From Eledone cirrhosa (taxonomy: Eukaryota): a DNA stretch of 64,000 bases. Made by a program: the position numbers and the translations under genes. The stretch is from assembly GCA_964016885.1 (NCBI GenBank), contig OZ024752.1, positions 1,674,001-1,738,000 of the forward strand. The letters run 5' to 3'. Below, one piece after another: positions 609-57,013 of this stretch. Numbering within the stretch: the first letter of the stretch is position 1; each line of letters opens with the position of its first letter. The notes beneath the pieces were generated by a model. The model did no database searches. It saw only the letters and a list, made by a program, of their open reading frames with translations, and was not told where the DNA came from.

Positions 609-688
609 ATATATATATATATATATATATATATATATATATATATATATATATATATATATATATATATATATATATATATATATAT
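609..688. repeat. (TA)n microsatellite, representative of dozens of TA/CA/GA tracts in the window
   Basis: Pure TA dinucleotide run; similar long tracts at 6849-6961, 8821-9030, 49060-49151 and 51198-51285. Confidence 0.99.
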
Positions 689-1340
689 TGTTATACTTGG
701 GGAGGGTCATATTTGTGTAATATTGCCAGAATTAATAACAGAACACACTCACTGTTTGGTTGGTTTTCGCTTTTCGCTTCTGTGTCTCTTATATCGGTAA
801 TCAAATTTATGCGGTCCTCAATGTTGCCATTGACAGACCAACGGTTAAAAATAATACAGTTACAATATAGACACAAACACATATATATATAGTTTATCAA
901 AGTTATTTCGTTGCACATCTGCAACATCGTCAGTGGTGCTATAGATTCTTCCCGTTGCATTGTATTTCTACGCCATCTTTATTTAGTCTGTATATATATT
1001 TATTTATTTATTTGTTTGTTTGTTTATTTTATTTTGTCTCCTTTGCGCATGCGTTTGCGTATGTGTATAGTGTTTTTTTTTATGTGTGTTCGTGATTGGG
1101 TGACTGTATATTGGTTAATGTGTTCTATGTTTACTAGTGTGTGTTTATGTGTTTGTTGTTATTGTGCTTGTGTATGTATTTACTTATTTATTTATATATT
1201 TATTTATTTATCTACAGTGAGTGTGTTCTGTTATTAATTGTGGCAATATTACACAAATATGACCCTCCCCAAGTATAACAATATTTGTTTCGACAGACGA
1301 TTTCATATACAAATCTCGCAAAACTAATTCATCGCCGTTA
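687..1340. mobile_element. PLE-derived fold-back element, family C2, between (TA)n tracts
   Basis: ttgttatacttggggagggtcatatttgtgtaatattgcc...cactcactgt (688-754) is inverted at ~1213-1282, followed by a ~55 bp tail; same terminus as the GIY-YIG-bearing element at 23771-25213. Confidence 0.8.
896..936 (-). ncRNA. Type I hammerhead-like motif (degenerate), family C2
   Basis: Minus strand: cacca CTGACGA t gttgca-gatg-tgcaac GAAA taactt tgat; helix II perfect, helices I and III weak. Confidence 0.5.
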
Positions 1341-1387
1341 TATATATATATATATATATATATATATATATATATATATGTGTGTAA

Positions 1388-1599
1388 AGGTTATATTTAA
1401 TTTGTTGGGATACTATCCAGGAGATTCGAACCAGAATGGTTGCATTTTTTAAGGGTATGCCAATATGTATTTATAAATCTAACCTATATTATATTTTATC
1501 TGATGAAAGCGCACCATAGTTTACCTTGGTGGCCCTTGAAATAGGTATAATGAAATAAATATGGTTTTATAAATATAGTTTCCACTTGTTAATATATTG
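1388..1599 (+). mobile_element. PLE-derived element, family A, with short inverted tail
   Basis: Homologous to 8386-8820, 44332-44651, 53378-53778 and 54100-54540; ends in (TA)n. Confidence 0.8.
1492..1557 (+). ncRNA. Minimal type I hammerhead ribozyme, family A
   Basis: tattttat CTGATGA aagcgcacca..tggtggccctt GAAA taggta TA atgaaata; helix I tattttat/atgaaata. Confidence 0.7.
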
Positions 1600-1651
1600 T
1601 ATATATATATATATATATATATATATATATATATATATATATATATATATA

Positions 1652-2670
1652 TCGTTTCTGAATTTGTTTAGCAAGATTCTTTATCTGAAAACGTGTGTTG
1701 AAATCGAAATTGTTATACTTTGGGAGGGTCATGTTGCCAATAAGAAACACACGTACAAGTTGCTTTCACTTCAATTTATTATAATAAATTTATAATAAAT
1801 TTATAAATTTAGGAATTTATAAATTTCTGGTTGGTTGGTCGGTTCCAGAACCAGATGATTGTTTATATATTGTCAAAGTTCTTTCGTCACACATTCTGTG
1901 ACCTCTTCAATGACTGGGGATTATTTTCTTTGTTGTTGTGCCTCTCCTTTGTCCTGTCCTACGCCATCTTGTTTTTGCGTGTCTGTTGTGTGCTTAGTTT
2001 GCGCATGTGTTACATCCGGGGGTCTGTGTGTGTTTATATTCGTTTACTTATTTACATGTTACTGATTGGTTGTTTGTTCTATGAGCGTGTGTTTGTTTTA
2101 ATTTTGTCCTTAATCTTAAGTTGTGATGTTGCTGTTCCACTCATGTTTTCTATTTAATTTTGGTTGGAGTTCATTTATGTTTATTGCCTCCGTGATTTGT
2201 CTAAACATTGCCTCACAGAGGCAATAAACATAAATGAACTCCAACCAAATTAAATAGAAAACATGAGTGGAACAGCAACATTACAACTTACAATTAATAA
2301 CAAAATGAAAACACACACCAGTAACATGTAAATAAACAAATAAGTAAACGAATATAAACACACACAGACACACGGATGTAACACATGCGCAAACTAAGCA
2401 CACAACACACACACAAAACAAGATGGCCTAGGACAGAACAAAGGAGAAGCACAAAAACAAAGAAAATAATCCCCAGTCACTGAAGAGGTCACATAATGTG
2501 TGACGAAAGAACGTTGACAATATATAAACAATCATATGGTTGTGGAACCAACCAACCAACCGGAAATTTATAAATTCCTAAATTTATAAATTTATTATAA
2601 TAAATTGAAGTGAAAGCAACTCGTGCGTGTGTTTCTTATTGGCAACATGACCCTCCCAAAGTATAACAAT
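1652..2670. mobile_element. PLE fold-back element, family C
   Basis: Arms ~1709-2195 and 2213-2670; centre encodes the last GIY-YIG residues (ITEAININELQP..NRKHEWNSN); decayed HHRs at ~1872-1914 (-) and 2476-2518 (+); flanked by (TA)n. Confidence 0.9.
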
Positions 2671-2770
2671 ATATATATATATATATATATATATATATAT
2701 ATATATATATACATATATATATACAGTATCTATATATATACTGTATATATATATATTTATATATATATAT

Positions 2771-53863: not shown

Positions 53864-54058
53864 AACGAAGGAAATGTGGTAAGGAACCAGGTGGACCATA
53901 ACGCACAAAAGTACTCAATACTTAGGGTAGTAGAGTGGGTAATAGGAACCAGTAAGACTCCGACGGCTGAGCTCAAGCCGTTTCGACGGCTAATTCTGGA
54001 CCCAGAATTAGCCGTCGAAACGGCTTGAGCTCAGCCGTCGGTGTCTTACTGGTTCCTA
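53864..54058. mobile_element. Short hairpin element, family D
   Basis: Tail plus palindrome centred at ~54000. Confidence 0.9.
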
Positions 54059-54099
54059 TATATATATATATATATATATATATATATATATATATATAT

Positions 54100-54540
54100 A
54101 CAATGATATTAAATAAATGGAAACTATATTTATAAAATCATATTTATTCAATTATAAAGCTTATACTGCCTGCTGGATAAGTGGAGTGTTATACACCCCT
54201 GATCCTCTCCCTAGTATACTTTATTCAATTATATGTATTTCAAGGGTACCAAAATTTTGGTACGCTATCATCAGATAAAATACAAAAAGTTTTATAAATA
54301 TTTGACATTACCAAGTTATCCCTGTCAAATATTTAAAAAAACTTTTTGTATTTTATCTGATGATAGCGTACCAAAATATTGGTACCCTTGAAATATATAT
54401 AATTGAATAAATATGGTTTTATAAATATAGTTTCCATATATTTAATATCTTTGAATATTTACTCCAGAAAACTGTCGAGTGCTCTGAATCAGTTATAAAC
54501 ATTTATATTTATTTGTTGTATTTACAGCAAATTAAATATG
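54100..54540. mobile_element. Fold-back element, family A subfamily, with two intact-core HHRs
   Basis: HHR at 54222-54282 (-) and 54349-54409 (+): tattttat CTGATGA tagcgtacca..tggtaccctt GAAA tatata TA attgaata. Confidence 0.85.
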
Positions 54541-54691
54541 TCTGTGCGTTCGTGTACGGATGTATGTATTTATTTATATGTATATCTATGTGACGGTGTG
54601 TATGTATGTATGCATGTACGTGTATGCATACATATGCGTGCGTGTATATATATATATATATATATATATATATATATATATATATATATTT

Positions 54692-54936
54692 ATATAGAAT
54701 AAGGAAAAGCGAAGTAGTTTCAGATGTTCAAGTCCTTTAATAATAATGCTGTGATATATATTTCAATGACGACACTGGCCAGTGTCGTCATTGAAATATA
54801 TATCACAGCATTATTATTAAAGGACTTGAACATCTGAAACTACTTCGCTTTTCCTTATTCGATATTTACTCCGTCACTCCTATGTGGAAAAAGTACGTTG
54901 AGTGTTTGAATTGAATTGCATCAATGTTTACCCTAA
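54692..54936. mobile_element. Fold-back element, family K
   Basis: Palindrome centred at 54778/54779 (cactgg|ccagtg), GAAA tatata TC at 54793-54804, ~70 bp tail. Confidence 0.85.
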
Positions 54937-56360
54937 TATATATATACATATTTATATATATATATGTGCGTGTGTGTGTATTATATATATATATATATAT
55001 ATATATACATATATATATATATGTGTATGTGTTTGTATGTCCGTGTGTGTGTGTCTGTGTGCGTAGATATATATATATATATGTATGATTGGATTTGTGT
55101 ATGCGTGTGTATATATATATATGTATATATTTAGATATGTATACATATGTATGTATATAGGTGTGTGTGAGTATATATGGAGATGCGGACACATTTAGAC
55201 GTGGGTGGTTGTGTACGTGTGTGCCCACATTTATGTGTATATGTGAGTGTGAGTAGGTATTTGTACAAGATCAGGGATGGGTCTTTGCTTGCAAATATGG
55301 GTGAGTGTATGTCCGGATTTGTCTTGTCTTTCTTGTCCAGTGTATAATTGTTCCTCTTTCTCCTACCTATCAATACTAACGCATCCTAAGTATGACTTAA
55401 AACCCTAACGAACGCTTCAAACAATTGTGTCCGTGAAATGCAAGTAGACATGTTTTCATGCATGAATAGACGTTATTTTGTAAAGTAACCGATTTTAGAA
55501 TGAATAATGAACAAATGAGCGGAGACGACATAATACCACGTTGTTGGAATATGCTAAATATGACAAAGTGCTAGAGATATTCACTCAATATCAGAGACCA
55601 GCTTACATATTGAGTCATGCAGAGGATCATTCTATTCCAGAGTCAGGTTCGATCAATAATAGATCGTTTCTCGAGTTGATAGACAGTGAAACACATGTAA
55701 TAGGTTATTAAATATGCTACAATACAACACTGATTCTTTGTTCCTTTATTCTTATACTATATATATATATATATATATATATATATATAATATATATATA
55801 TACACACACATATACACACACACACACACATATATCTATATCTATATCTCTCTCTCTATATATATATATAAACGGAAAAAATATGTATGTACGTGTACAT
55901 ACTCATATTTAAGTAACAGCCGTACTAAGAGTGGGAAATGAAATTTCGTTTAATTTTTTTCGTTTATCGTTTTCGGTGCCCCGGCCGATTAACCCACTCG
56001 ATATGCAAATTGGACTACTCAGCCGTTGATATGCATAAGGTAAGTATATACGTTCAACAATCTGGCGGAAAAAATACGTTGCTGACGATAGCTAATAAGC
56101 TTGAAACTAGTAGAGCGTTCCTTTGTCAGTGTTGAACAAACGAGAAACGATGGTTGCTAGACACTACGGCTTAATACGGGATGTTTGTTTACAAACACAC
56201 CGAGCATTATAAAAAATGTTCGGTGAATCCATACGTACATATATATATATATATATATGTGCATATATCTATATATATACATACTACTGTACGTCTATAT
56301 ACATACATGTATGTGCGTGTACATACTTATATATATATATATATATATATATATATATAT

Positions 56361-57013
56361 ATGTATATATAATGTATTTTGCAATACACTTTATGCTTAA
56401 TTAAAAGCATTTTGAAGACCGTAAGCTATTGTTTTAAAGTAGTGACAAAATCACTCACTTTGATCTCAGCAAACAGGGGAGATAAGCCGACCTGACATGT
56501 TTCGCTTTTGTTGAAGCGAAACATGTCATGTCGGCTTATCTCCCCTGTTTGCTGAGATCAAAGTGAGTGAATTTGTCACTACTTTAAAACAATAGCTTAC
56601 GGTCTTCAAAATGCTTTTAATTAAGCATAAAGTGTATTGCAAAATACATTATATATACATCCATATATATATTGCTATTTCAGAGCTCCAATTCTAATTT
56701 TTTATTTCTGCCTGACCAACAACCGCTCTGCATAATCAGCTCCTGATTATTTACTAGATTTCTATAAGAATATAACATCATTCATCTCAGTAGACAGGCG
56801 GGGTAGTTGGCCTTGATAAGCTTCAACAAAAGCGAAACATGTCAGGTCGGCTTATCTCCCCTGTTTGCTGAGATCAAAGTGAGTGAATTTGTCACTACTT
56901 TAAAACAATAGCTTACGGTCTTCAAAATGCTTTTAATTAAGCATAAAGTGTATTGCAAAATACATTATATATACATGCATATATATATTGCTATTTCAGA
57001 GCTCCAATTCTAA
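56361..57013. mobile_element. Inverted plus partial-tandem HHR element, family L (retrozyme-like)
   Basis: Inverted arm 56361-56510; direct copies ~56514-56697 and ~56830-57013. Confidence 0.88.
56805..56852 (+). ncRNA. Minimal type I hammerhead, U3-A8 variant, family L
   Basis: agttggcc TTGATAA gctt-caacaa-aagc GAAA catg TC a ggtcggct; palindromic ACATGT helix III. Confidence 0.68.

Follow-up and report, generated by a model that had tools for sequence, protein, structure and literature searches.

How are inverted pairs of ribozyme-bearing inserts formed within (TA)n microsatellites, and do the ribozymes that they carry act? The question is raised by a 64,000-nucleotide stretch of the Eledone cirrhosa genome (i.e. 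the window; assembly GCA_964016885.1, contig OZ024752.1, positions 1,674,001 to 1,738,000, or C12:1674001-1738000), which has a GC content of 32%, contains 199 TA runs and carries many inserts with two head-to-head arms derived from Penelope-like elements (PLEs). Each pair is probably the product of a single event: cDNA synthesis on one uncut RNA would have been primed at two fixed starts by the two cut strands of the TA target.

Family ends were defined by clustering the flanks of TA blocks from the window and from a comparison sample of 59 evenly spaced 10-kb stretches elsewhere in the genome (i.e. 590 kb; the genome total was taken as 3.0 Gb), which yielded element ends that recur. In every family two discrete 3' ends abutted TA at similar frequencies, namely a short end (S) and a tailed end (T) equal to S plus 43-95 nt. 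Head-to-head pairs were counted for nine families with same-family partners only, 17 overlapping loci and 6 pairs with an internal TA run being dropped; families A and M and seven smaller families lie outside the count. The resulting 120 pairs comprised 102 S+T, 6 T+T, 1 S+S and 11 unclassified pairs, giving one end of each kind in 102 of 109 classifiable pairs (binomial p = 1e-22 against 50%). The 67 pairs not chosen by the same-family search comprised 58 S+T, 2 T+T, 1 S+S and 6 unclassified pairs. Left and right orientations of S+T were evenly represented (52 versus 50).

Partner arms resembled each other closely. Across 96 overlapping pairs, they shared 244 non-consensus bases as compared to 38.7 expected from the arms of other pairs, and divergence between arms was below that from other copies in 74 pairs, with 9 ties (medians of 2.45% and 4.45%). 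The pair at 4125-5768 exhibited a G8U change of the hammerhead core in both arms that was present in 0/25 other copies. The 5' reach of the arms was compared in the 66 S+T pairs with a junction gap of <=30 nt: the S arm extended further in 23, the T arm in 12, and both equally in 31. Arms without any overlap were observed in 10 of the 102 S+T pairs. The 5' ends of 134 unbiased arms fell in the hammerhead core or helix II (62), in helix III or at the cut site (6), downstream (22) or upstream (44), and 24 of 40 family E arms stopped 39-49 nt after C3, an 11-nt stretch of helix II. As only 6/134 arms end at helix III or the cleavage site, ribozyme cleavage was rejected as the source of the 5' ends, indicating that the template RNA was uncut.

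About half of the tails carry a further feature. A stem of the form RCTC...GAGY starts 3-9 nt past S in 7 of 13 tails (A-U in five, G-C in two), and a second copy was observed ~8 nt beyond T at a single family E locus running into the open reading frame (ORF; L180:6413-6436). Illumina short reads of another study under the same species label, examined for the insert at 10772-10965, showed family E passing into TA at S (3,254 and 2,976 reads) and also at T, with inverted-sense arm joints in 53, 59 and 59 reads, each at one start place. Raw-read support for the palindromes, on which the first-pass annotation had made its reading depend, was thus obtained for the ends and joints of family E, while the individual locus was not singled out. 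A pile of read ends at 10835 in the restriction site-associated DNA (RAD) runs was considered as a reverse transcriptase (RT) stop and rejected, being most likely a restriction site. In family H23, the fold lies at nearly one point in three loci (22943-23315; L056:6815-7175; L089:3101-3452), at a short internal palindrome, and may reflect either annealing of two cDNA ends or copying of a ready-made palindrome.

The inserts are 5'-truncated 3' ends of endonuclease-bearing PLE families, placed head-to-head in (TA)n. In the proposed course of events, a GIY-YIG nuclease would nick both (TA)n strands, and one 3'-OH would begin cDNA at T and the other at S, with the RCTC...GAGY stem likely marking the starts in families of the Hydra type. 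Both cDNAs would run 5'-ward, often halting in the folded hammerhead, and would then be end-joined. (TA)n would be left at both ends of every insertion, which would explain the pile-ups of inserts.

A different route, proposed by Arkhipova et al. 2013 (PMC3846280; here as for the other sources cited, in the part available), is fold-back self-priming, in which a cDNA or antisense RNA turns back at a hairpin to serve as its own template, and the endonuclease resolves the hairpin at the short end. Such a route would fit the frequent position of junctions at hairpins or short palindromes, the variants common to both arms, and the 31/66 close junctions that are symmetric together with the 12 in which the tailed arm is longer. 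A copy cannot, however, hold sequence absent from its template, which excludes self-priming for the 23/66 pairs with the longer S arm; the 10/102 pairs without overlap also argue against it, and the fixed S end would require an extra step. The tail-less arm being often the longer and the sharing of rare variants therefore favour priming by both strands on one RNA, and self-priming is considered unlikely. If the two strands were instead primed on two RNA molecules, brought by two ribonucleoproteins or by a dimer with two RNAs, the end geometry would be identical, and bursts or gene conversion would have to account for the likeness of the arms. T+T pairs do occur, and partner arms were less alike than unrelated copies in 13/96 pairs, with 9 ties, as might be expected of two templates. 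Yet both arms belong to one family and sub-family although at least 17 families target the same repeat (only same-family partners were searched), shared private bases are 6-fold over expectation, and free RNAs would not alone enforce one S and one T, which makes two templates rather improbable. An assembly artefact of fold-back chimeric long reads is scarcely credible: palindromes beside long TA runs are error-prone and no read was shown spanning this exact locus, but the arms differ by a median of 2.45% and stop at element ends, the one-tail rule holds across many contigs, and S ends, T ends and head-to-head joints of family E appear in the Illumina reads of another study.

Several points nevertheless weigh against twin priming on one RNA. 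The evidence consists of genomic end products alone; the 6 T+T pairs and the S+S pair break the one-of-each rule; the 13 pairs with dissimilar partners do not fit; shared variants could reflect sub-family structure or later gene conversion; and the 31 symmetric junctions fit fold-back equally well. The second stem copy beyond T was examined in one locus only, and the stem pattern was chosen after viewing the tails, so that its shuffle mean of 0.13 of 13 is optimistic. Among the 13 tails, the pattern is also absent from those of A, B, C, H23, H56 and H11b, which still show S+T.

Within the window, self-BLAST and an inverted-repeat search recovered the (TA)n-bounded fold-backs at the coordinates given by the first-pass annotation, whose figure of more than 25 inserts from about 12 families was if anything an undercount: counting by hand, 17 families were represented by 37 pieces in the interval 689-57012, with two arms in at least 26 of the pieces. 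Its family letters could not be matched to those used here. The common layout of (TA)n, arm, arm and (TA)n stood, but not its symmetry, as one arm bears a tail of 43-95 nt. There were 40 local inverted pairs in the window, 33 of which are built of hammerhead-family sequence; inverted pairs of another kind within the interval lie at 7572-7738/9030-9193, 41960-42191 and 42201-42250/43119-43168. The inserts are clumped (689-13.8k, 22.9-26.2k, 44.3-46.3k and 50.3-57.0k), with none of these families in 26.3-44.3k, and family sequence covers 21% of the window as compared to at least 5.6% of the 590-kb sample. Recent activity, as previously suggested, is supported by the best 40 genome matches being 94-99% identical (families C, D, E, I, H54 and H11b). 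The genome search with H23 returned nothing, itself included, and empty or small match lists are no proof of rarity. The pieces are as follows (strand in brackets where assigned).

689..1338: family A fold-back with S on the left and T on the right; CUGACGA core on the - strand near 935 with weak helix I; family tied to GIY-YIG in 4 loci
1380..1599 (+): family D sense arm with the tip of an inverted tail; intact hammerhead at 1500 without mirror masking
1653..2668: family B fold-back, tail left; hammerheads at 1910 (-) and 2483 (+), both mutated
2771..3177: family F fold-back, left-hand tail; hammerheads of U4C type, decayed
3379..3672: short fold-back of family C, right-hand tail; junction within helix II
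3728..4054 (+): family J insert; intact hammerhead at 3880
4125..5768: family C fold-back, exceptional in having a tail at each end; GIY-YIG remnant at 4713-5171 (-); G8U core change in both arms
6963..7063: family I stub, inverted tail and ~17 nt of S
7864..8094 (-): arm of family K with tail; hammerhead near 8030, decayed
8379..8820: family D fold-back, left-hand tail; one intact hammerhead, at 8565 (-), and one mutated, at 8724 (+)
10772..10965: family E fold-back, right-hand tail; arms meet within the long helix II, leaving 3' halves only
11274..11469: family H11a fold-back, tailed; no hammerhead core seen in the retained part
11527..11823: family H11b fold-back, left-hand tail; hammerheads kept as 3' halves only; other copies carry a Hydra-type endonuclease
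11980..12169: family E fold-back, left-hand tail; arms meet in helix II
13342..13780 (-): arm of family I with tail; hammerhead of U4A type near 13510
19838..20497 (-): family B fragment with decayed coding sequence for the RT C-terminus; not a fold-back
22943..23315: family H23 fold-back, right-hand tail; U3-A8 hammerheads at 23056 (-) and 23137 (+), both intact
23373-23541: family E2 stub, tail left
23570-23735: family N arm; intact hammerhead at 23638
23775-25211: family B fold-back, tail left; intact hammerheads at 24033 (-) and 25010 (+); GIY-YIG-type remnant at 24238-24615 (-)
25240-25697 (-): family I arm, within the stretch at 23775..26241
25803-26241 (+): family B coding fragment
44324..46251: pile-up of D (44324-44651), E (44696-44885), E2 (45800-45922) and E (46041-46251)
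44938-45768: family E in the same pile-up; two intact U3-A8 hammerheads, ~60 nt from core to GAAA
50285-50557: family I fragment
51287-51600: family A, inverted tail and sense arm
51621-51846 (-): family F
51860-52100 (-): family J2
53377..54935: cluster of D (53377-53796), E (53865-54056) and D (54101-54538)
54692-54935: family H54, joined in helix II; tail right
55871-56238: family M; hammerhead at 56080 with the first helix I pair broken
56372-57012: family H56 compound fold-back; U3-A8 hammerhead at 56813

The hammerhead content was assessed using a structural scan. At a score of >=12, the window contained 11 motifs as compared to a mean of 0.68 (maximum 3) in 25 shuffles, and the 590-kb sample contained 64 motifs as compared to 3, 0 and 4 in shuffled controls. 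Extrapolation gives ~3.1x10^5 motifs genome-wide (bootstrap 95%, 2.3-4.3x10^5), with the window two to four times richer than the sample. A strict scan overlooked bulged and variant motifs, while U4 variants and a 3-bp helix I still escape the relaxed scanner, whose helix II measure fails on family E. Family-guided reading of the window identified 31 two-halved motifs (one, at 54272, by eye), of which 15 match the family core and 16 are mutated without sign of preservation, and at least 16 hammerheads with a 3' half only. An Rfam scan of the window gave no hammerhead family among the 150 of 269 matches listed, the matches being to generic hairpin (i.e. miRNA) models and below threshold.

Majority sequences adopted a type I hammerhead fold in 14 families (B, C, D, E, F, I, J, J2, K, M, N, H23, H56 and H54), with helices that pair across families without common sequence. 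The core is the canonical C3-G8 in B, C, D, J, J2, K, M, N and H54, and U3-A8 in E, H23 and H56, the helix II region of E being ~60 nt. Family F has a U4C core (CCGACGA in 6/15 copies, C at position 4 in 13/15; 2905-3150) and family I a U4A core (CAGAAGA in 37/41 copies; window 25245-25330 and 13461-13537). These minimal folds bear out the earlier statement that most families contain a hammerhead, some with variant cores. Helix I is poor in family A, the core is split in H11b and none was seen in H11a. In H11b (11527-11823; L195-L203), ~85 nt with a possible helix II separate CUGAAGA from GAAA, and the strand that follows the cut site finds its best partner (8 bp) inside this loop; the canonical fold is predicted to compete with an inactive one, and this is kept in aligned copies. 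H11b was considered as a non-circularly permuted hammerhead, as described in the available part of PMC10085705, but this was not supported, because the helix I block and CUGANGA are not contiguous. A separate TA-bounded piece at 57032-57478, with CUGAAGA and GAAA, no good helix I and one other copy, is possibly an 18th family.

The first-pass annotation had suggested that mirrored ribozymes could cut read-through RNA of either strand or form long double-stranded RNA (dsRNA) hairpins. Equilibrium folding gave helix I and II probabilities of 0.0 in 6/6 mirrored contexts. Isolated motifs of H23, D-8565 and B reached helix probabilities of 0.3-1.0 and family E reached 0.8-0.95 for helix I; D-53479 fails even alone. 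Whole ribozymes were absent from 39/67 unbiased pairs, and two were present in only 16/67. As the arms point outward, read-through RNA always makes the antisense arm first. Mirrored genomic ribozymes are thus predicted to be silent, zipped into a long duplex in read-through RNA, and the genomic ribozymes are passengers from the pseudo-long terminal repeat (pseudo-LTR). The duplex part of the suggestion accordingly agrees with the folding of mirrored arms, whereas cutting on both strands does not, and mirrored copies could not dimerise with each other, lying on opposite strands. A functional system of the host or element in which mirrored ribozymes cut read-through transcripts of both strands is therefore very unlikely. 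In its favour are the 15 intact motifs in 64 kb, the ~3x10^5 motifs genome-wide and the unmirrored motifs at 1500, 3880 and 23638, for which folding indicated that partial structure is retained within their inserts; besides the zero helix probabilities, it is opposed by mutation of 16/31 motifs with no preservation, by the reported failure of single minimal hammerheads to cleave, with little cleavage of dimers (in the accessible text of PMC4209133), and by anole data that, in the part available of PMC11167929, show no RNA ends at the site.

Coding remnants indicated the identity of the elements. The GIY-YIG sequence at 4713-5171 (-) passes Pfam; a second GIY-YIG-type stretch (24238-24615 (-) and 25904-26239 (+)) has no Pfam match, exhibits a GIY-YIG/CCHH pattern by eye and matches closely only family A/B loci. 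A full family C element was found at L175, with pseudo-LTRs at 6541-6019 and 3588-2931, ~3.1 kb apart, and an ORF of 272- and 626-aa frames with one stop between (RVT_1, E 1e-15, and GIY-YIG). Its nearest named relatives are RT/GIY-YIG entries of Octopus bimaculoides (60-62%), most other matches being at 30-43%. The ribozyme is preceded on its own strand by an endonuclease in A (4 loci), B (10), C (17), E (11), I (12), H11b (4) and D (2), counts that include overlapping loci; the link for H54 was discounted, as its sole link leads to family B sequence. Linking the families to PLE ORFs, as had been advised, thus led from 7/17 families (A, B, C, D, E, I and H11b) to GIY-YIG and to one complete pseudo-LTR-ORF-pseudo-LTR element. 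By eye, E, I, D and H11b have a CxCx5C-type linker and CxxC and CxH around the late E/N but no CCHH, with RWR and DKT additionally in family E. According to the available text of PMC8557442, the Hydra clade has RWK, DKT, a CxCx5C linker, no CCHH, late CxxC and CxH, and a (TA)n target, and Neptune/Nematis have a Cx2-5CxxC linker and a CCHH endonuclease; by these motifs, E, I, D and H11b fit the Hydra clade at sequence level. Families A/B (Cx4CxxC linker and CCHH; B at 24238-24640) and C (GxKF, DKG and CCHH) are not Hydra.

The features found are those of endonuclease-positive (EN+) PLEs: an RT and GIY-YIG ORF between pseudo-LTRs, a hammerhead in the pseudo-LTR, 5' truncation, an inverted copy and a one-end tail. 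Naiad was rejected because the endonuclease is C-terminal and hammerheads are present, and a miniature inverted-repeat transposable element (MITE) or fold-back DNA transposon because junction and arm length vary by locus and the tail is at one end. A non-LTR retrozyme was not supported, as self-BLAST showed dispersed, inverted copies and no head-to-tail arrays in the window. The Penelope-like origin proposed at first was supported. An open 898-aa non-LTR retrotransposon frame was observed beside the full family C element (L175:7305-9998 (-)).

In the twin priming of L1, reportedly proposed by Ostertag and Kazazian in 2001, both target strands are said to prime on one RNA and produce an inversion, with a variable second start and parts without overlap; in the present families the second start does not vary, and most arms overlap to form a palindrome. 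The closest known systems are EN+ PLE insertions (PMC3846280, PMC8557442), which in the parts available have the same head-to-head inverted pseudo-LTRs, one-end tail, (TA)n targets, hammerhead in the pseudo-LTR, RT with C-terminal GIY-YIG and partial tandems, but tails of 30-40 nt as compared to 43-95 nt here, where density is also very high. The Hydra clade (Craig et al. 2021, PMC8557442) shares (TA)n insertion, hammerheads and the linker and endonuclease motifs of E, I, D and H11b; some of the hammerheads here depart from the canonical form, E having U3-A8 and a 60-nt helix II region and I having U4A. PAc, a Poseidon element of Anolis (Frangieh et al. 2024, PMC11167929), likewise has, in vitro, two RT starts bounding the tail, cuts and extends both target strands, and uses an AT-rich target and an uncut RNA template, its protein being modelled as a dimer; the text available describes no start difference between strands and no tie to inverted structure, whereas here the two ends use different starts. 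The minimal hammerheads of metazoan PLEs (Cervera and de la Pena 2014, PMC4209133) share the short helix I, the extra base after A9, the palindromic mini helix III, the U3-A8 variant and opposite-strand pairs 100-700 bp apart. Their descriptor gave 2,000-9,000 per genome as compared to the ~3x10^5 extrapolated here with a different scanner, and the U4A and U4C cores were not found in the part available. Animal non-LTR retrozymes (bioRxiv 10.64898/2026.07.22.740005) have type I hammerheads related to those of PLE pseudo-LTRs but, as described there, form head-to-tail tandem arrays, in contrast to the dispersed head-to-head stubs of coding elements here. The inverted arms, one-sided tail, TA targeting, minimal hammerheads and U3-A8 core are already published; the 17 families are new, but the architecture is described and the clades are known, making the window a dense example of a known layout.

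Other repeats were observed in the window. A 165-bp inverted duplication (7572-7738/9030-9193; 96%) surrounds nested K and D inserts and looks like host flank copied inverted during insertion, not a mobile family; only these two matches were returned by the genome search, although a single-copy reading is weakened by the unreliability of small match lists. A decayed hAT DNA transposon at 27300-30103 has 12-bp terminal inverted repeats, DUF4371 and Dimer_Tnp_hAT matches, and several stops and frameshifts. The GC-rich fragment at 41560-42191, outside TA, ends in a 232-bp palindrome (41960-42191), is flanked by apparent 17-bp direct repeats (41538 and 42192), has no Pfam match and resembles the RT end of a non-LTR retrotransposon. 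Inverted repeats of 50 bp lying 870 bp apart (42201-42250/43119-43168) are possibly a non-autonomous DNA transposon. A repeat of ~190 bp resembling a short interspersed element (SINE) occurs in ten copies (5894, 15443, 15711, 29811, 30737, 37497, 37721, 40073, 46990 and 50150), and two such copies make their own palindrome at L003:545-916. The sequence at 49153-50030 is a repeat family starting from a TA run, with internal duplications of 40-80 bp and 7 matches in the 590-kb sample.

The contribution of these families to the genome was estimated from TA-block flanks. Ends of definable families formed 58/168 flanks (35%) in the window and 142/951 (15%) in the sample, fractions that are lower bounds, from a library that includes sample-derived pieces and misses families without a detected ribozyme; the view that the TA landscape is largely produced by such elements was not upheld by these values. 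Tight inverted pairs in the sample belonged to these families in 29/57 cases, many of the other 28 being similar by eye. A near-perfect inverted partner within <=2 kb was found for 1,444 of 35,105 sampled 50-mers (638 simple repeat, 397 these families, 409 other, many of the last being similar by eye), a figure of 4.1% that cannot be set against the 0.44% published for O. bimaculoides, as assembly and method differ. The available part of PMC5625713 reports octopus to be an outlier in duplex potential and hyper-editing, and a lizard Penelope to be heavily edited. By analogy, the fold-backs are a plausible and concrete candidate source of ADAR substrates. Sequencing run X4, of unknown kind, showed no A>G excess over X1 and was uninformative. 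A wider proposition is put forward tentatively, at somewhat less than even chances: that twin priming is obligate, on one RNA with two fixed starts (set by the stem in Hydra-type families) and the hammerhead as stop, and that the palindromes are the main non-microsatellite source of near-perfect dsRNA and a major feed of adenosine-to-inosine (A-to-I) hyper-editing.

The formation of inverted one-tailed PLE insertions is named as open in PMC8557442 and tentatively ascribed to self-priming in PMC3846280, in the parts available. The one-S-one-T rule and the arm-length test were not found in the available parts of these two papers (the supplements of PMC8557442 may describe Hydra tails or hairpins), and none of the papers listed for Penelope and twin priming concerned PLE mechanism by title. 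Penelope families are counted in the O. vulgaris repeat paper PMC13282606, in which the terms 'ribozyme' and 'editing' do not occur. A genome with at least 17 young families gives a count-based test of insertion mode, favouring two starts on one RNA, and the one-S-one-T rule joins up with the 2024 in vitro result and points to RNA features worth mutating.

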